Positions 1 to 9,981 of a DNA stretch of 9,981 nt are shown here, piece after piece. The position numbers and the translations under genes are program-made. Where the stretch lies: the IMG/VR virus record IMGVR_UViG_2541047944_000001; one strand, given 5' to 3'. Positions within the stretch are counted from its first letter, which is position 1, and every line of letters starts with the position of its first letter. The notes below the pieces were generated by a model. The model was not told where the DNA came from. It did not search any database and saw nothing but the letters and a program-made list of their open reading frames with translations. The stretch comes from a virus. Lineage: Duplodnaviria; Heunggongvirae; Uroviricota; Caudoviricetes.

Positions 1-288
1 CTACCGCCGCAACCGTTTCGGCTTCTTCCACTGGTAAGTATTTTTCGCGCTCTCCCTCCGTTGTTGAGAACGGCGACGGTATGCCAGCAACTCAAGAACT
101 CTGGTTCGTATGTTGCGCATATCCACGCCGTTAAGCTCAATACCGTCACGGCGCATCACATCAGCCACCACACGCGCGTAATTTTCAGCGGTGACGGTAT
201 CCGGCTGCTTGGCCTGTTCGTCAGCCAGCTGGCTGATTCCACCAGCACGGCGGATTAATCGCAGTATTTCAGATTCAGTCATTATCAT
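1..288 (-). CDS. Hypothetical small protein (95 aa) with a strongly basic C-terminal tail; downstream of and translationally coupled to the small terminase gene
   Basis: Complete ORF (ATG at 288, TAG at 1..3). Its start overlaps the stop of the upstream gene (285..287). C-terminus RRRSQQRRESAKNTYQWKKPKRLRR is Arg/Lys-rich. No recognisable catalytic motif. Confidence 0.45.
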   Translation of the reverse strand: MIMTESEILRLIRRAGGISQLADEQAKQPDTVTAENYARVVADVMRRDGIELNGVDMRNIRTRVLELLAYRRRSQQRRESAKNTYQWKKPKRLRR

Positions 289-770
289 GCCTGTTTTGCG
301 ACCTCATTCACTACGTCATTTTTTACCATCCGGCTGATAATCTGATTACACAAATCGTCAATAATTGACTGCACTCTGTTTACTGCCATCGGTTTAAGCC
401 CGGCATCACGTGCCAGAATATTGGGGAGTTTTGCCAGTTCCTCGCTTACGATTTCCCCCCATATAGCCATCTCTTTTCGCACATCATCGGCGGGTATGAG
501 TTGCGCCGTTTCCTGTTCGAACTTGAGGCGCTCACGTTCGGACTGATACCAGGCCTTACGGTCATGTGGCTCCATTTCTTCCAGTGATGCCGGAACGGGA
601 AGATCAAGAAAACAGGTCAGAATGTCAGTCACCCGATAGAGTTTCAGCTTGTCATGCCCTCCGGCTGGCTGGATGTTTTTCAGCCTTGCCGCCGCAGTCT
701 GACGACATATTCCCGCTATCGCCGCCAGTTGATTAATGTTCAGCATCAGATTTTTCAGTTCTCGATCCAT
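285..770 (-). CDS. Terminase small subunit, Nu1-like (N-terminal HTH DNA-binding domain), 161 aa
   Basis: The ORF track gives 285..857, but the ATG at 770 is preceded by GGAG (ctGGAGcgggtATG), so I trim to 770. The N-terminus LNINQLAAIAGICRQTAAARL is a helix-turn-helix followed by an acidic/coiled region, the same layout as lambda Nu1-type small terminases. Position next to the capsid gene fits a packaging module. Confidence 0.55.
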   Translation of the reverse strand: MDRELKNLMLNINQLAAIAGICRQTAAARLKNIQPAGGHDKLKLYRVTDILTCFLDLPVPASLEEMEPHDRKAWYQSERERLKFEQETAQLIPADDVRKEMAIWGEIVSEELAKLPNILARDAGLKPMAVNRVQSIIDDLCNQIISRMVKNDVVNEVAKQA

Positions 771-923
771 ACCCGCTCCAGAATGTTTTAAACATGCATC
801 TTGCGAACAACTTTCAGAAGAGGTCAAAAAATGCGCTATATGTTGAGCATAAAACAAGCAAAATTAACATACTAAAAATAAAAACACTTAAAATTCAATA
901 TCATAGAAAGATGATGATGACGA

Positions 924-1026: not shown

Positions 1027-2940
1027 TCATGCTCCACTCGATTTCAGTAATCCGCGATAATCGAGGGCCGCGACACCTGCATCTATGCGTACTTTCCAGG
1101 CGACACCATCAACAGTAAAGCCCACCTGCTCCTCAAGATATGGCGTATCCATCCCATCAAGATAAGCGACTTCTATTGTGTCCATCCCCTTAGCTGCGGC
1201 TACATACCATTCCTTGCTATTGGCCTTATCAAGACGTGGCTCAACAATTACTTCTGCCATATCTTTCACCACGTTAATGATGCCGGGGTTCTGATTGATA
1301 GTGCTCTCATCACCAACCGGAAAGACTGATGACGATGACAAAATGGCGCGACGCGCGGCAGATTCCAGCGCGGCAGGGACCAGAACAAAAGCAGGGGTAA
1401 TATTCAGGGAGTCGCCGTTAGCATCCTCCTGGAGGCGCATCCGCTTACGGGCTTCATCAAGCCCCACCATGTCCATATCCTTCGCAATAAGATTTTTATG
1501 ATCGGCATGGAATAACGCTTTACCATCCGTAAACTTGCCGTTGCTGGTTAACAGGAGATAAACCAGATTGCCAACTGTTCTGGCGGCTGCGCGTCCCATC
1601 GCCATGGGGATTGTAGTTAACTGGGTCAGGTCATCGTTGATAATGGCCTGACGGGTAACGGAAAAAATATTCCCGTACGTGGCCAGCGCAATAGGTACAC
1701 CTTTATCGCTGGTGGTGATGTATTTATATTCCGCACCTTCCGGTACTTTATCCAGCTTTGAAAAACCATTCAGACCAACGCGCTTTGCTTCATGAAAGTT
1801 TGAAAGCGAACCGGTACGCGTCCATTTCTGGAACGTTTCGCCGCTGTCCTGCCAGCCTTTCAGTACAGATTTTTCAGCCCCACCAGCCAGAATATGAGAA
1901 AAATCACTGCTGCTGTGTGTAAAAGCCGCATTAACAACCTGCGAGCGATTAATAAAACCGCTCACAGTGATACCACGATCAACCAGTGATGCCTGGGCCA
2001 TTTCAAAAAGGCTCATCATCGCGTAAGGGTTGCCTCGTTCAGGGCGTTCATACCCAAGACGGGAATAAAGCCCCTGACGAATTGCATCACCTGTTATGTT
2101 TCCGTTTCCGGCATAGATATGAGGCGGGGTATTTTTATTGGATGGCGTGGACTCGCGCCCCAGCTCGTTCAACAGCTTTTCACGGGCCATTTCCGGTGTA
2201 CATGATGCATCTTCCAGACACGCCATTTTGATCCCGTCGTAACGACTGCCGAACAGGCTAAACACTTCACTTATTCCATTGATGCGCTTCTGTTCATTAC
2301 CAGCAATATTTGCCGCTCCCTGTGGCGGTGTAATCATTCCTTTAATGGTTTCCGGCATATGTAAAAAATCTCCTGTGCGTTTCGATTCAATTCGCGCCAT
2401 TGCTCTGACGGATGGCAACAATTCATCAGCAAAACCGTGCTTAAGGCATTCTTTCCCATCCATCCAGGTTTCATCCTCCAGCATGGCGGTAATTTCCTGT
2501 GCTGATTTGCCCGTTTTTCTGGCATAAGCAGGGATTAACACGGTTTCCACCTTATCCAGCAAATCAGCATAATCACGCATATCGCCAGCATTTCCGCCAG
2601 AGATCCCCCACGGTTTATGGATCATCATCATGGCGTTCTCCGGCATCACTACACGATCGCCAGCCATTGCGACCACCGAAGCCATTGAAGCCGCAACACC
2701 ATCGATATAAACCGTAATGTCTGCCGGATGATTCCGTAGCAGGTTATAGATGGCGATGCCTTCAAACACATCACCACCTGGTGAATGGATCCTCAGATTG
2801 ATATGTGAAACATCGCCAAGGGCTTTCAGGTCTTCCGCGAACTGCTTTGCAGTAACACCGAAGCCGCCAATCTCCTCATAGATAGATATATCCGCCGCTC
2901 CACGAACATCCGCCGCCTTAATGGTGTACCAGCGATTCAT
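1027..2940 (-). CDS. Fused prohead (ClpP/S14-like) maturation protease and HK97-fold major capsid protein, 637 aa
   Basis: N-terminal ~190 aa carry the ClpP-like prohead protease signature (IHSPGGDVFEGIAIYNLL...VYIDGVAASMASVVAMAGDRVVMPENAMMMIHKPWG). The C-terminal ~400 aa resemble HK97-family major capsid proteins (...ATYGNIFSVTRQAIINDDLTQLTTIPMAMGRAAARTVGNLVYLLL...). Long uninterrupted ORF with ATG at 2940. Confidence 0.85.
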   Translation of the reverse strand: MNRWYTIKAADVRGAADISIYEEIGGFGVTAKQFAEDLKALGDVSHINLRIHSPGGDVFEGIAIYNLLRNHPADITVYIDGVAASMASVVAMAGDRVVMPENAMMMIHKPWGISGGNAGDMRDYADLLDKVETVLIPAYARKTGKSAQEITAMLEDETWMDGKECLKHGFADELLPSVRAMARIESKRTGDFLHMPETIKGMITPPQGAANIAGNEQKRINGISEVFSLFGSRYDGIKMACLEDASCTPEMAREKLLNELGRESTPSNKNTPPHIYAGNGNITGDAIRQGLYSRLGYERPERGNPYAMMSLFEMAQASLVDRGITVSGFINRSQVVNAAFTHSSSDFSHILAGGAEKSVLKGWQDSGETFQKWTRTGSLSNFHEAKRVGLNGFSKLDKVPEGAEYKYITTSDKGVPIALATYGNIFSVTRQAIINDDLTQLTTIPMAMGRAAARTVGNLVYLLLTSNGKFTDGKALFHADHKNLIAKDMDMVGLDEARKRMRLQEDANGDSLNITPAFVLVPAALESAARRAILSSSSVFPVGDESTINQNPGIINVVKDMAEVIVEPRLDKANSKEWYVAAAKGMDTIEVAYLDGMDTPYLEEQVGFTVDGVAWKVRIDAGVAALDYRGLLKSSGA

Positions 2941-3146
2941 TATTCCCCCACCGATGCAAAACCATTCTGATTAAGCCAGGTGTTTACGGCATGTCTGACA
3001 ATCTGCGCCACACCTGGTAATGGTTTGTCAGGATGATGATTTATATGGTCGATCCTGTACTGCTTAAGGCGCATAACGGTCTGCGCATCCAGATGAACGG
3101 AACCACCCCTGATATCGCCCGTGTTCAGGTCATTAATACAACTCAC
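2940..3146 (-). CDS. Hypothetical small protein (68 aa), first gene of the capsid operon; possibly a ribbon-helix-helix-like regulator
   Basis: GTG start at 3146 preceded by AGAGGAAG at good spacing. Its stop overlaps the capsid ATG at 2940. The beta-strand/helix pattern (SVHLDAQTVMRLKQY ... VAQIVRHAVNTWL) is compatible with a small DNA-binding fold, but this is weak. Confidence 0.4.
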   Translation of the reverse strand: MSCINDLNTGDIRGGSVHLDAQTVMRLKQYRIDHINHHPDKPLPGVAQIVRHAVNTWLNQNGFASVGE

Positions 3147-3247
3147 AGTAACTTCCTCTTACTGACTAAACTGTGCACATTATTGATCGATAAAAGTGGT
3201 AGATAAACATATTTCTATCACAAAAATAGATTAATGAGATTCAGACA

Positions 3248-3271
3248 CAAAAAAGCCGGAGAAAATCCGGC
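3248..3271 (-). terminator. Putative intrinsic terminator (minus-strand orientation) between the replication module and the capsid operon
   Basis: Stem GCCGGA (3255..3260) / TCCGGC (3266..3271) with a 5-nt loop. On the minus strand the stem is followed by a run of T (plus-strand A-run 3248..3254). Confidence 0.4.
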
Positions 3272-3458
3272 ATAAATATCCCGCCATCTGAACACGTTTT
3301 GACACAGGCAACTCCACCTGGCAGGTGAAAAACAGATTTATTTATATATTTCAATTAATTGCAAACTGGTCTAATGACAGGGAGAAAAAAATATTGTACA
3401 GGTGAAAACAGAAATAACTTTTAATTATCAATAAATTATCACACATGCTGCCGCCGCC

Positions 3459-3543
3459 ATGAAAATGCAAAAACCAGCCTTTTTCCGCGCCGCTCCCGCC
3501 CCGTGGCAGACCACTCCACCGGGAGGACCCGTAAAAAAGGCGG
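3459..3543. repeat. 85-bp direct repeat, copy B (84/85 identical to copy A at 924..1008), between the iteron region and the capsid operon
   Basis: Same sequence as copy A with one mismatch (C vs T at repeat position 17). Flanking sequence diverges immediately on both sides. Confidence 0.9.
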
Positions 3544-3691
3544 ATTGCTCCGGCTTCTGTTACTCGTTGCTTAAAACGGTATGTTATCCCCGTACGGATC
3601 ATCATTCCCCGCCTGTTGTTTTGGTGTGCTTCGCTGTCATAGGCTTTATCTCACAGCAGTAAATTAAAATTTTTGCGTTTTAACCCTTCAC

Positions 3692-3914
3692 CTGTTCACC
3701 TTTTGATATTTTCTCTTTTAATTCATAATGTTAAGGGGTGAACAGTTTCACAAAAACTATTCACCAACTGTTCACCACTGTTCACCCTTGAAGCTCAATA
3801 AACAATCAAAAAGGTGAACAGTGAATAGTTTGGTGAACAGTTCATAAATAACTGTTCACCCTATAATATACTGATATAAAAGATATTTATGACAGGGTGA
3901 ACAGTGGTGAACAG
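3692..3914. repeat. Iteron array: nine perfect copies of CTGTTCACC / GGTGAACAG in both orientations plus degenerate copies; putative P4-type replication origin (ori or crr-like) with an AT-rich spacer
   Basis: Forward copies at 3692, 3768, 3778, 3852; reverse copies at 3737, 3813, 3832, 3896, 3906; a degenerate ATTCACC at 3759. An AT-rich stretch at 3861..3892 could be an unwinding element. To my recollection TGTTCACC is the octamer bound by phage P4 alpha protein at ori and crr. The array lies immediately downstream of the alpha-like gene. Confidence 0.75.
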
Positions 3915-3927
3915 TTATTCCATAAGT

Positions 3928-5745
3928 TTAATTTTTGCTATCGTCATTAGTGACCGATACACATGATGGCATCCAGTCTTCTGATTCCTCCGTCAGTGTC
4001 ACGTTTGAACGCAAACCGTGCTTCGTTTTCCGTTTCATATACTCCCTGCCATATTCCGCCATTGCCCCCGGCATATCTTTACCGAAGCGCGTCAGTGTTA
4101 CAGGTTTACCAAACCCATGTGCCCTCATATAAGCCAGATAGGCATGATAGAGATACCTGCGTGGGCTGAATGGCACAATTTCAGCATTACCCACTAACAG
4201 GCCATCACACATTACCGACGCCATGAGATAGCCGCAGAAGTCCACCAGCGAATCCCCCTCTCGCTTTATCGCCAGTGCTTCTTCAGATTTCTGCTGCTCA
4301 TATAACAGGCGTCTGGCTTCGTCCTGGTCAGCAAACCGTGTAAGCAGATGGCGAATCACTACCGCCAGCTCACCTTCTATTTTTTCCGCCAGCATTGGAT
4401 CGCGTTCGTTCTCCGGTACAACTTCCGAAAAATTGAATATCACCCGACGACGTGAGATCCCCCCGCTGCGGTCACTGAATGACATGGCGTTATTGTTAAC
4501 CGCCAGCACTACTGCCGGAATACGCGTTGAGTAGGGGGCTTTGTGTTTCGGGTCAATTGCCACCTTGTCACCGCCTGTAATGGCCTTAATCCCTGCCCCA
4601 TCACCAGCGTAGCGGGTCATATCCGGCATGATAATCAGCGAAAAGCCAACCACTAACGCGCGTTCCCTTGCATCTTCCAGCGCCTTCATGCTTGCCGATA
4701 CTGTGTTGGCCTTACCCGCCAGCATGGTGCAAATCTCCGCCATCACGCTTTTACCACTTCCCCCTGGACCTGTTACCTCAATGAATAACTGCCAGTCGTA
4801 CCGGTTCGCCAGCACCATGAATAAGGCAGCCAGTACGCGATCCGCCTTGCGGTCATTCTCAGCCACCGAACGGCGTAACCACTTCCAGAAATTCGGCGCA
4901 TGTGTTGCCAGCGTTTCCCCCTCTGCTGGTGGGCTGAAAGGTAATTCACTGGCAATTAACAACCAGTCGTTTTTGTTATGCTCCCGAAAATTACCTGTTC
5001 TGGTATCAAATACCCCGTTACTGAATCCAATCAGGTTACGGGCTGTATTCCCCATTACAGGCAAACTTAACTTCATGGTATCGACCGCCGATTTAATGGC
5101 GTTCTGCGAATAGCTGATCTCCGCATCAATGAAAATCTGCGCCATAGCACGCTGTAACTCTTTATCCTGAACCGGCTCCCATACAATGCCGTTGTAATGG
5201 TGAACAGTGTCAGAGTCGGCATGAATCGCCAGTTCACCGCCATAATGTGCCAGGAGAACTTCGCCGCGTTGACTTGCTCCCATCTGGTTAAGCGCCAGTG
5301 ATGAAGCGTTATCGTCTTTTACCCGCTCTTTTTTCTTTACAGGCAGTTCAACTACCTTTTTCTTTTCCGCCAGCTCTCCCCGCTCACGTTCCAGATATTC
5401 GCGCCAGTTCTCCCGTTTCTGGCTGTGCATTCCTTCAGGATAATAATCAGCATCCCTGACACCTGCCGCTGCCAGTTTCTGCCCGATGGTATTAACAAGC
5501 CCCGGACGCAATAACCCCGCCTGGTAGAGACGCACGCGATAGCGTCCGTCCGGTACGATTTGCAGGTTGTCCAGTTCGGCAAGTTGTTGCTCTCCAAGCC
5601 AGACAGGTGGCACGTTATCGCCAGCCAGTCGCCCGTCCTGTTCCTGCCACTGCTTCGCATGTGCCCACGCATCACTACCCGCAAAAATGATGACTTCCGT
5701 CATTTTGTCACGCGGCTGGTGTTTTAAATTTGGCGCTTTTTTCAT
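3928..5745 (-). CDS. Replication initiator, P4 alpha-like primase/helicase (SF3 helicase domain with Walker A GPGGSGKS), about 605 aa
   Basis: Long ORF with Walker A motif (VTGPGGSGKSV) in the second half, typical of the P4-family phage/plasmid primase C-terminal domain. The first ATG at 5745 is preceded by GGAGAG and overlaps the stop of the upstream ORF (ATGA); the track's start at 5760 is a GTG. Adjacent TGTTCACC iterons support the call. It is shorter than P4 alpha (777 aa, from memory), so the N-terminal primase domain may be reduced or different. Confidence 0.85.
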   Translation of the reverse strand: MKKAPNLKHQPRDKMTEVIIFAGSDAWAHAKQWQEQDGRLAGDNVPPVWLGEQQLAELDNLQIVPDGRYRVRLYQAGLLRPGLVNTIGQKLAAAGVRDADYYPEGMHSQKRENWREYLERERGELAEKKKVVELPVKKKERVKDDNASSLALNQMGASQRGEVLLAHYGGELAIHADSDTVHHYNGIVWEPVQDKELQRAMAQIFIDAEISYSQNAIKSAVDTMKLSLPVMGNTARNLIGFSNGVFDTRTGNFREHNKNDWLLIASELPFSPPAEGETLATHAPNFWKWLRRSVAENDRKADRVLAALFMVLANRYDWQLFIEVTGPGGSGKSVMAEICTMLAGKANTVSASMKALEDARERALVVGFSLIIMPDMTRYAGDGAGIKAITGGDKVAIDPKHKAPYSTRIPAVVLAVNNNAMSFSDRSGGISRRRVIFNFSEVVPENERDPMLAEKIEGELAVVIRHLLTRFADQDEARRLLYEQQKSEEALAIKREGDSLVDFCGYLMASVMCDGLLVGNAEIVPFSPRRYLYHAYLAYMRAHGFGKPVTLTRFGKDMPGAMAEYGREYMKRKTKHGLRSNVTLTEESEDWMPSCVSVTNDDSKN

Positions 5746-6047: not shown

Positions 6048-6368
6048 TTATCCCCGATTTGAATCAGTATTCGCTTTCTTTATGGCATTTAATGCATCTG
6101 TGGCATTTTCAATGGTGCACCGTAACGAAATATCAAACTGCCCAAGCATTGCCAGTAACAAACCGATATTACCCATATCAATGCGCATGGCCTTTTCGTC
6201 ATAGTCCTCATTTTCTGACGCATGCCACATCAGGCTACCAATTGACGCAATACCCATTGATATATTGTCAGTAGCCCCATCCGCAGCGGAATAAACCTTT
6301 TTAGCAATATCATGCTCACAGTTAAAATGCGGATTAATCAGGTACTGGTAATTTGACATATCAGGCAT
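6048..6368 (-). CDS. Hypothetical protein (106 aa), in an operon with the HNH gene and the primase
   Basis: ATG at 6368 overlaps the HNH stop (6361..6363) by 8 nt. AT-rich. No recognisable motif. Confidence 0.5.
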   Translation of the reverse strand: MPDMSNYQYLINPHFNCEHDIAKKVYSAADGATDNISMGIASIGSLMWHASENEDYDEKAMRIDMGNIGLLLAMLGQFDISLRCTIENATDALNAIKKANTDSNRG

Positions 6369-7038
6369 GGCACACCCCCTGACGAATACGGGCGGCGAAT
6401 ACCATCACGCAGCCAGCCGGAGATTGCTGGCGTGCTTCCTGTTCGCTGGTGGCCTCAATGGTAATCACGCGCGGTTGTGCCGTGCTCAGGGCGATAAAAC
6501 GCCAGATATATTTATTCAGGTTGTGCGATTGCCCATTTCCTTCCCCGTGATTAGCAAATTTACCGTGATGCTGCTCGCGAAATTGTTTTACTACTTGTTC
6601 GGCCTCACAAATATCCGCAAATAGGCCTAGTCGATGGTTTTTTCCGTTAACACGACATTGGGCGCGCCATTTTTTATGCTGCTTACTCCAAGTAACTCCC
6701 TTGACTCCCGATGTATTATTTTTTGCCTTTAATATGTTGTATTGATTTTCTGCGCTCGTTGCTTCGCGGAGGTTAGTAATACGATTATCACTGCGTACCC
6801 CGTTGATGTGATCAATTAAATTTGTAGGCCATTTGCCATAAACATAAAGCCATGCAAGTCGGTGCGCTGCATAAAGCCTGTTTTTAACCCCAATCTGAAT
6901 ATAACCATGACTGGTAAGACACCCAGCAACACTACCATTTTTAACGTTTCTGGCTGGTGGAACTCTCCATGTAAAAACGCCTGTTTCAGGGTCGTAATGC
7001 AGGGTTTCACGTAAGTATTTTTGGGTTAGTTCAGCCAT
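6361..7038 (-). CDS. HNH endonuclease with AP2 DNA-binding domain (homing-endonuclease-like), 225 aa
   Basis: HNH_3-type motif (AHRLAWLYVYGKWPTNLIDHINGVRSDNRITNLREATSAENQYN) followed by an AP2-like domain (SGVKGVTWSKQHKKWRAQCRVNGKNHRLGLFADICEAEQVVKQFREQHHGKFA). ATG at 7038 preceded by GGAGG at 7-nt spacing. Confidence 0.8.
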   Translation of the reverse strand: MAELTQKYLRETLHYDPETGVFTWRVPPARNVKNGSVAGCLTSHGYIQIGVKNRLYAAHRLAWLYVYGKWPTNLIDHINGVRSDNRITNLREATSAENQYNILKAKNNTSGVKGVTWSKQHKKWRAQCRVNGKNHRLGLFADICEAEQVVKQFREQHHGKFANHGEGNGQSHNLNKYIWRFIALSTAQPRVITIEATSEQEARQQSPAGCVMVFAARIRQGVCHA

Positions 7039-7135
7039 GACACGCCTCCAATGTGGAGATACTGGAATAGTCAGGGTGAGTTTGGGTATGCTGTGTTCCA
7101 GCCATAATCGTTACTCCTGTTAACGGTTTGGTTAG

Positions 7136-7179
7136 ACGCCCCGTTACTGCTCCTACAGTGCGGGGCGTTGTTTTTTGTG
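7136..7179 (+). terminator. Putative intrinsic terminator in plus-strand orientation with no obvious upstream plus-strand gene
   Basis: Perfect 8-bp stem ACGCCCCG (7136..7143) / CGGGGCGT (7161..7168) with a 17-nt loop, followed by TGTTTTTTGTG. It lies in the divergent intergenic region between the HNH gene and the RHH gene. Confidence 0.45.
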
Positions 7180-7195
7180 TAATGGTAAGTACAAT

Positions 7196-7235
7196 GGTAA
7201 TTACCATGTAACTATAGTAATCAAGGGTAATTACC
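7196..7235. promoter_or_regulatory. Two copies of the perfect palindrome GGTAATTACC (within a 14-bp direct repeat GGTAATTACCATGT), candidate operator sites overlapping the RHH gene start and the divergent promoter region
   Basis: Palindromes at 7196..7205 and 7226..7235, centre-to-centre 30 bp (about three helical turns). A TATAGT -10-like hexamer (7213..7218) lies between them. The second palindrome abuts the ATG at 7236. Confidence 0.5.
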
Positions 7236-7409
7236 ATGTCAACACCATTAGAGAAACGATCGCCACCATACCAAATGCGACTACCAGAAGAATTTAGAGC
7301 GCAACTTGAGGAGGCAGCCAAGGCAGACGGCGACACCTCATTAGCTACTTGGATTAAACGAATACTCCGCAAAGAATTACAACAGCGCGGTATCGAGCCC
7401 AAAGGCTGA
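7236..7409 (+). CDS. Ribbon-helix-helix (Arc/MetJ-like) DNA-binding protein, 57 aa; candidate repressor; not in the supplied ORF track
   Basis: Translation: MSTPLEKRSPPYQMRLPEEFRAQLEEAAKADGDTSLATWIKRILRKELQQRGIEPKG. The segment YQMRLPEEFRAQLEEAAKADG...SLATWIKRIL matches the Arc-family beta-strand/helix/helix pattern. A strong terminator follows at 7504..7536, and palindromic operators sit at the start codon. Only a weak SD (AAGGG). Confidence 0.6.
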   Translation: MSTPLEKRSPPYQMRLPEEFRAQLEEAAKADGDTSLATWIKRILRKELQQRGIEPKG

Positions 7410-8567: not shown

Positions 8568-9981
8568 TCAAACCACCATTTGAATTAACGATACTAAATA
8601 GTAATGCGCGTTTCTCACTGTCACTCATACTCTCCAGTGCGGAAAGCAATTGCGCATCGATAGATTTTTTACTCTCCACCAGCCCGGCATGTTCCAGAAT
8701 TGCCCGTTCTATCCGTGACGCTGGCTCCAGCAGTTCATCAGCACCAAAATGTAAATACCCCTGCGTTACGTCAGCACTTCGCATAGTACGGTGATTCATC
8801 AGGCGCTTGAGGATGTAATTGCCCACGCCCACCAGTTCGGCAACCGTTCCGAACGTCCGGCGTGCATCGTGCCATTTGAATGGTACAGGGGAGAGCATTT
8901 CATCGTTCGACTCTGGAACAGTAGCCGCGCTTATCCGGTCTATGATGTGCCGTGTTTCCTGAATCACTCCCTTCACACCAGGAAACACCAGAACATCATC
9001 AGCGTTTTTTATTTTCAGTCGGCGGTGGAACATTTCCCGCAACGTATCAGTAATCGGTAATTCGAGCGGATCCCCGTTTTTCGTGGTGTCTATCCAGAAA
9101 AAACGACCGCCCATATTCACGCGATCCCACGTAAGGCCAAAAATTTCTGATTTCCTCAGTCCGGTAAAAAGCGCCATTTCCACGGCATCGCATACCGTCA
9201 CCGCTATATCATCCCTTTCCTGTTCGCCCTGGTCGCGCACAGCAGCTACAGCAGCAAACCAGCGGGGAAAATCATGCAGGCGGATACGTTCCGTTTTTCT
9301 TACCGTTCCGTGCCACTGGCGCTTGGTGCTCAGTACCAGAGTCGGCGGATCCGGTAAAAGAGTATTACCCGCATCATCACGGTAATGATCATGCGCAAAC
9401 CGACACACAGCACGTAGCGCACGCGCCCATAAATCGGCCTGTGCCTTGCTTCCTGTACCAACCCCAGCCCGTAACGTGGTTTTATCAGCACCGAACCATA
9501 CAGCCCCATCAGTGATGGCCTTATGCCGTTGTTCCACCCGTTCGCGGGAAATACTGGCGAGGGTATGGGCCATCCAGTCACCGGAATAATTCTGTAATAT
9601 GCTGCGGTACTGTTTTTCTGTGGCGGGTTTCAGGCGGTGGCCACGATTTTTTACGTAGGCGTCAATCGCCTCACTCAGCGTTATCATGGCCTTGTTGTTA
9701 GTGCGCTTTGCTATGTTCGGATTTATCCCCGTTGTGGCGACTTCGCCAAGGAGTTCCATAGCTTTAGCCCGGGCATTATCCACGCTCAGATCAGGAAAAC
9801 GCCCCAGCGTTGCACGAATAAATTTTCCGTTACGCTTACGGGAAATGCAGAAACTTTTCACACCAGACGAACCTACACGGACACGCAGCCCGTTAACCTC
9901 CGTATCACCATATTCGACCTGTCCATGTTCCGGCGTTGGCAGTTCTGCAATTTTTACTTTAGAGAATCTGAATAATTTCAC
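8554..9981 (-). CDS. int: Tyrosine recombinase / integrase, P4-type (N-terminal arm-binding domain plus C-terminal catalytic domain); 5' end at the window edge
   Basis: N-terminus (...GLRVRVGSSGVKSFCISRKRNGKFIRATLGRFPDLSVDNARAKA...) matches the P4-integrase arm-binding domain pattern. The C-terminus carries a catalytic-type HxxR motif (WHDARRTF) and a candidate Tyr (QGYLH). The ORF reaches position 9981 with a GTG as its first codon, so the true start may be here or just beyond the window. Confidence 0.9.
   Translation of the reverse strand: MKLFRFSKVKIAELPTPEHGQVEYGDTEVNGLRVRVGSSGVKSFCISRKRNGKFIRATLGRFPDLSVDNARAKAMELLGEVATTGINPNIAKRTNNKAMITLSEAIDAYVKNRGHRLKPATEKQYRSILQNYSGDWMAHTLASISRERVEQRHKAITDGAVWFGADKTTLRAGVGTGSKAQADLWARALRAVCRFAHDHYRDDAGNTLLPDPPTLVLSTKRQWHGTVRKTERIRLHDFPRWFAAVAAVRDQGEQERDDIAVTVCDAVEMALFTGLRKSEIFGLTWDRVNMGGRFFWIDTTKNGDPLELPITDTLREMFHRRLKIKNADDVLVFPGVKGVIQETRHIIDRISAATVPESNDEMLSPVPFKWHDARRTFGTVAELVGVGNYILKRLMNHRTMRSADVTQGYLHFGADELLEPASRIERAILEHAGLVESKKSIDAQLLSALESMSDSEKRALLFSIVNSNGGLNVRK

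Follow-up and report, generated by a model that had tools for sequence, protein, structure and literature searches.

A P4-type iteron array as the probable replication origin of an Escherichia coli PICI

Closest described systems and the host island

The alpha protein of phage P4 was reportedly found by Ziegelin et al. in 1993 to bind type 1 repeats. The P4 record (NC_001609) labels the octamer TGTTCACC 'ori type 1 repeat' and annotates six such repeats in ori (9310-9413) and ten in crr (4291-4590), with crr beginning 46 bp beyond the end of the alpha gene. Alpha is composed of a DnaG-type primase, an SF3 helicase and a C-terminal winged helix (PDB code 1KA8) (PMC2777425). For the PICI EcCICFT073, a plasmid with pri-rep and ori was maintained in DH5alpha and rep or ori mutants were not (PMC6092414). 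SaPI origins and iteron plasmids have proteins and repeats unrelated to those of the locus described here. The helicase of iteron plasmids is a protein other than the initiator.

The window (the whole stretch of DNA analyzed, 9,981 bp) matches E. coli chromosomes, and the island in strain E10 spans ~10.8 kb between tRNA-Ile and nfeF. Among 5,426 complete E. coli genomes, 3,036 match parts of the window and 27 hold 80% or more of it. The island genes encode an integrase, an HTH_17 regulator, an Icd-like protein, a DUF4222 protein and the alpha-like protein, after which comes the array and, beyond it, a ClpP-protease/major-capsid fusion and a DUF1441 protein (PHROG 'terminase small subunit'). 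PICIs are marked by a size of ~8-12 kb, an integrase, an AlpA-type HTH protein, pri-rep, unidirectional transcription, a cos site and the absence of tail and lysis genes, and the island agrees with this context in its length, its integrase, HTH_17 regulator, small terminase and capsid fusion, and its cos-like repeats. Portal, large terminase and tail genes are missing from the E10 island copy, and the hallmarks of cf-PICIs (portal, head-tail adaptor/connector and large terminase) are neither annotated in the complete E10 island nor found in the window. No Cnr homologue was found, the 106-aa ORF of the window having no similarity to P4 ORF106, and Pfam and PHROGs scans of 14 window ORFs gave no match to the sid, psu or delta families. 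The element is an EcCICFT073-type PICI of E. coli, ~10.8 kb in size, and not a P4-like satellite. The tRNA-Ile/nfeF island and its insertion site are absent from Table S1 of PMC6092414 (Fillol-Salom et al. 2018).

The correspondence with EcCICFT073 extends from the gene order (int, HTH, Icd-like, DUF4222, pri-rep, ori, capsid-like module) to the origin itself, which lies immediately 3' of pri-rep in both islands. In both islands iteron groups flank AT-rich spacers in the order >> AT < >>> ... <<< > AT <<, and the three-domain Rep proteins are 49% identical, the N-terminal domain included. Since the gene order, the layout and the tested ori correspond, the array in the window is the counterpart of a validated origin. 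The differences lie in the iteron, which is of the TGTCTACC / CTGTCTACC type in EcCICFT073 and TGTTCACC here, and in the C-terminal segment of Rep, which reads TRKVKGVTQTN there and KRKTKHGLRSN here. The modules beyond the array also differ, with capsid and decoration genes in EcCICFT073 and the ClpP-protease/capsid fusion with the DUF1441 small terminase in the window. In the cf-PICI-like vB_KppS-Ant (LR881103) and a locus of Klebsiella pneumoniae ATCC 13883 (L012), Rep is 77% identical and a colinear array holds eight perfect copies of TGTTCACC, but a full capsid module with portal and head-tail connector genes is present.

The likeness to P4 is seen in the identical octamer, often extended to the 10-mer ACTGTTCACC, in the 10-11-bp iteron spacing and in the homology of two parts of the protein, the SF3 helicase and the winged-helix origin-binding domain. 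Like crr in P4, the array comes just after the 3' end of the alpha-type gene, and its rep-proximal unit has the layout of P4 ori. In noticeable differences, a single composite array is present here whereas P4 ori and crr are about 4.7 kb apart, the P4 type II repeat GCTTTAAGTG has no match in the window at one mismatch or fewer, and the protein is without the Zn-ribbon/TOPRIM primase domain. The initial annotation had taken the core octamer for the P4 alpha iteron, in agreement with the type 1 repeats of NC_001609, and the alignment to P4 ori and crr that it proposed, run by BLAST, matches parts of the array to both. Its link to P4-type replication is supported by the homology to the alpha helicase and origin-binding domain and by the tested ori of EcCICFT073, and is to be refined in that the P4 primase domain, the separate ori and crr and the type II repeats have no counterpart here and the element is a PICI. 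Calling the 3928-5745 product a 'primase' is a matter of labeling, as no primase domain is detectable.

The ClpP-protease/major-capsid fusion is full-length (1027-2940, minus strand) and is accompanied by the DUF1441 small-terminase homologue (285-857, minus strand) without a portal or large terminase; in APEC E16002 tail-gene fragments are inserted between these two genes. A 94-nt direct repeat (924-1017 and 3459-3552, 95% identical) flanks the protease/capsid gene, and read on the other strand (…ACGGGGCGGGAGCGGCGCGG…) it is similar to the lambda-type cosQ-cosN sequence of EcCICFT073 (PMC6092414 supplement). From this resemblance the repeats would represent two cos-like sites in a single island, and both copies also occur in strains E10 and APEC E16002. 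An HNH_3/AP2 endonuclease ORF (6361-7038, minus strand) forms an in-frame fusion with the Icd-like gene, and at the same site E10 and APEC E16002 have only a 204-nt Icd-like gene; the window therefore bears an insertion of ~860 bp (about 6528-7389), which looks like a homing endonuclease. At about 3570-3630 the window lacks ~584 bp with an SSB gene and a small ORF that are present in E10 and EcCICFT073, so that the SSB gene is reduced to its 3' end, and APEC E16002 has the same deletion.

Iteron array and alpha-like protein

The whole array, the proposed ori, lies at 3692..3914 (no strand assigned) and contains nine perfect copies of the 9-mer CTGTTCACC. Four are on the plus strand (3692..3700, 3768..3776, 3778..3786 and 3852..3860) and five on the minus strand (3737..3745, 3813..3821, 3832..3840, 3896..3904 and 3906..3914), the last of these being 14 bp from the rep stop codon. 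The array also holds at least three degenerate iterons. Degenerate copies are located at 3757..3765 (plus strand, CTATTCACC), at about 3820..3828 (minus strand, the plus strand reading AGTGAATAG), where aligned relatives have a full iteron, and at 3684..3691 (plus strand, CCTTCACC), which aligns to the full second iteron of relatives. Neighboring iterons of the same orientation are spaced by 10-11 bp. The overall arrangement is an imperfect palindrome of ~220 bp made of two mutually inverted P4-ori-like units, L (3692-3786) and R (3813-3914), and the rep-proximal half read in the rep direction has the order >> (35-bp AT) < (13 bp) >>>.

With at most one mismatch allowed, CTGTTCACC has 14 matches in the 9,981-bp window and 10 of the 14 fall inside the array, whereas 200 dinucleotide-preserving shuffles of the window averaged 1.78 matches and never exceeded 7, a comparison that rules out a chance origin of the array. 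A CRISPR is excluded by the short repeat units (8-9 bp) and their presence on both strands. Neither the window nor the complete island of strain E10 contains a second iteron cluster. The sole other perfect copy in the window is at 5199 inside the rep gene, in keeping with chance since ~0.3 exact octamers are expected per 10 kb, and belongs to an iteron-like inverted pair, GGTGAACAG … CAGTTCACC (5199-5238). This pair encodes a conserved GGEL…TVHH motif and is probably a coding coincidence, since no extra TGTTCACC was counted outside the array in L007, L008, L010 or L012; it was rejected as a second origin element.

Three AT-rich spacers without strand assignment separate the iteron groups, and their GC contents of 19-27% compare with 47% for the whole window. 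Spacer 1 (3701..3736, 19% GC) is a candidate unwinding element, the central spacer (3787..3812, 27% GC) holds the dyad center, and spacer 3 (3861..3895, 20% GC) contains the least stable 30-bp duplex of all 9,981 bp (3861-3890, nearest-neighbor dG -28.5 against a window mean of -41.6, sd 3.8). The last of these is the most likely melting site. The nine perfect 9-mers in both orientations, the degenerate copies, the AT-rich stretch at 3861..3892 and the verdict against a CRISPR had all been put forward in the initial annotation, and the positions, composition and stability given above uphold them. At the distal edge of the array is a conserved AT-rich motif (3655..3683, no strand assigned) that reads CTTAAACGCATATTTTTTAATTTTAT in relatives and is kept at the same position across genera (L007, L008, L010-L013, L015 and L016). 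No DnaA-box or IHF consensus occurs within 3500-4000, and no Rfam family was matched. Only one terminator-like hairpin, at 3255-3271 (minus strand), separates the rep gene from the capsid module, and transcription of the rep operon would therefore traverse the whole origin. The SSB gene adjoins ori in strain E10 and EcCICFT073, and because two iterons have decayed and the SSB gene beside ori is missing, the origin copy in the window could be weakened.

The alpha-like initiator/helicase, 'pri-rep', is encoded on the minus strand at 3928..5745 (605 aa from the ATG) and contains the Pfam domains D5_N, DUF5906 (SF3 helicase) and a C-terminal Pox_D5, with the Walker A sequence GPGGSGKS in the DUF5906 helicase. 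It is 48% identical to residues 290-771 of P4 alpha, which cover the helicase and the C-terminal origin-binding domain. The winged-helix origin-binding domain (residues ~497-598, 3952..4257, minus strand) matches PDB code 1KA8 with E=1.8e-24 and is 48.5% identical to that of alpha. Within it, residues 570-581 (MKRKTKHGLRSN, 4003..4038, minus strand) covary with the iteron class and form the predicted wing. An AlphaFold model of the C-terminal domain has a pLDDT of 42 and is unusable for checking the wing. At the other end of the protein a 125-aa α/β-domain (5371..5745, minus strand) takes the place of the Zn-ribbon and TOPRIM primase domain of P4 alpha. These N-terminal 125 residues have no Pfam match and no Zn-ribbon or TOPRIM signature; the fold is weakly TOPRIM-like, and profile-profile comparison with the N termini of P4-like alphas gave no similarity (Prob 0.4%). 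A second homologue search with the N-terminal domain returned mainly gene fragments. The functional EcCICFT073 pri-rep has the same N-terminal domain as the 'DNA primase family protein' here.

Iteron class and the C-terminal segment of the initiator

A scan of one genome per species gave 80 loci with alpha-like genes, and 83 alpha-like genes were compared. An iteron array lies just 3' of the gene in nearly all of the 83, and in 58 of the 74 loci of sufficient length the most repeat-rich 300-bp interval of the ~9.5-kb locus is directly 3' of the gene. Six iteron variants falling into five classes are seen. The TGTTCAC class has 65 cases and includes the window, P4, vB_KppS-Ant and the ~800-aa alphas of Xenorhabdus and Photorhabdus, and the other classes are TCTCCAC (9 cases), TGTCTAC (4), TGTCCGC/TGTCCAC (3) and TATCTAC (2). 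Among Xenorhabdus ehlersii (L041, L044, L047, L048 and L079) and other Xenorhabdus genomes, up to five alpha-like loci of the TGTTCACC class lie in a single genome, so that a shared iteron specificity does not bar the co-residence of integrated elements.

Wherever the segment that follows EYGxxY in the C-terminal domain is readable (81 of 83 proteins), its sequence and length match the iteron class in every case, a covariation that represents about five lineage-level switches and not statistically independent cases. The TGTTCAC class pairs with the segment [KR]x[KR][TS]KxG[ILM]R[ST]N, the TGTCTAC class with an inserted GPDKGR and the TCTCCAC class with KKSTKGN[MI]RSN. The stretch preceding the variable segment, PVSLTRFGTDMPGAMAEYG, is nearly constant between classes. 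From the topology of winged-helix domains the variable segment is inferred to be the β-hairpin wing. Iteron class is not predicted by overall relatedness, as the helicase domain of L009 is 93% identical to that of the window yet its iteron is TGTCTACC, and the helicase domain of P4 alpha is 52% identical yet its iteron is TGTTCACC. The proteins of L084 and L028, from one Enterobacterales metagenome assembly, are 95.7% identical overall, with most of their differences in the ~13 residues that follow EYGxxY; the array of L084 is built from CTCTCCAC and that of L028 from TGTTCACC. Judged from these sequences the pair appears to be a natural specificity swap within a single assembly.

Ten arrays of the TGTTCACC class from seven genera (E. 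coli, Klebsiella, Citrobacter, Raoultella, Pluralibacter, Kluyvera and Pectobacterium) are colinear when aligned. Identity to the window is 88.9% in the iteron columns and 53.1% in the spacer columns (Mann-Whitney p=1.6e-12).

Probable origin function and its meaning

The array, already taken for a probable origin in the initial annotation, is very probably the vegetative replication origin of the PICI, and the P4 iteron, the homology to alpha and the tested counterpart in EcCICFT073 speak for that assignment. The observed base comprises the repeat array with its P4 type I iteron sequence, the homology of the protein to the alpha helicase and origin-binding domain, the covariation and conservation among relatives and the equivalence in position and layout to the EcCICFT073 ori. 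If the protein acts like P4 alpha and the Rep proteins of PICIs and SaPIs, induction would lead to binding of the TGTTCACC iterons by the 605-aa alpha-like protein encoded immediately upstream, acting through its C-terminal winged-helix domain. The iterons are 10-11 bp apart in convergent groups, and the bound protein would therefore surround the AT-rich spacers of ~35 bp. One spacer, most likely 3861-3895, would then melt, and the SF3 helicase domain of the same protein may load there and unwind the DNA. Primers would come from a host primase, probably DnaG, because no primase domain is recognizable in the 605-aa protein. The two inverted P4-ori-like units are suggested to do the work that P4 splits between ori and crr.

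Plasmid iterons often serve both replication and regulation, which lends some weight to an array that is mainly regulatory, whether for autoregulation of rep, for control of capsid or packaging genes or as copy-number 'handcuffing' sites. Transcription of rep enters the array with no terminator between the two, and the conserved motif beyond the array would fit such a function as well. A mainly regulatory array is nevertheless unlikely, since no promoter-like site is present within 2900-4000, iteron groups around AT-rich spacers are typical of an origin, and the homologous region of EcCICFT073 is needed for replication (PMC6092414); regulation would in any case be compatible with an origin and is not a truly exclusive reading.

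The position directly 3' of the alpha gene is that of P4 crr, and the partial alignment to crr likewise suggests a cis-acting enhancer at which the initiator is bound while initiation occurs elsewhere. That the array is only such an enhancer is improbable given that neither the window nor the E10 island has another iteron cluster, that the rep-proximal half is laid out like P4 ori itself, and that pri-rep with the adjacent region sufficed for replication in EcCICFT073 (PMC6092414). Repeats in both orientations also occur at cosB/pac sites and in attP arms, but a packaging signal or integrase arm-type sites are a very improbable explanation, as about 4-6 kb separate the array from each end of the island, the cos-like sequences are elsewhere (924-1017 and 3459-3552) and the iteron class follows the C-terminal domain of Rep.

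As a replication origin the array is of an already known kind, both as a PICI ori and as a P4 iteron, and the current view of such origins is unchanged. The observations go modestly beyond the routine in an iteron common to a PICI, a cf-PICI-like element and P4, in an iteron class that tracks a segment of ~12 residues and in an initiator without a recognizable primase. The origin and likely initiator are fixed for this PICI lineage, and this PICI is seen to share its initiator-binding repeat with P4.

A more tentative possibility is that the initiator and iteron constitute an exchangeable specificity module of P4-like elements, PICIs and cf-PICIs, in which residues 570-581 may read the iteron center and the iteron classes may be compatibility groups. 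If so, these residues would read the variable center of the iteron T-N-T-N-N-R-C-C. TGTTCACC is the iteron of the PICI, of P4 and also of the cf-PICI-like element from Klebsiella, and one initiator could therefore fire or titrate the origin of another; co-resident satellites might escape this cross-talk by a joint swap of segment and iteron, as the L084/L028 pair suggests. That a segment of ~12 residues sets the iteron specificity is a simple testable hypothesis, and such a specificity segment, if confirmed, would aid the prediction of origins, the replicon grouping of satellites and questions of replication interference between them.
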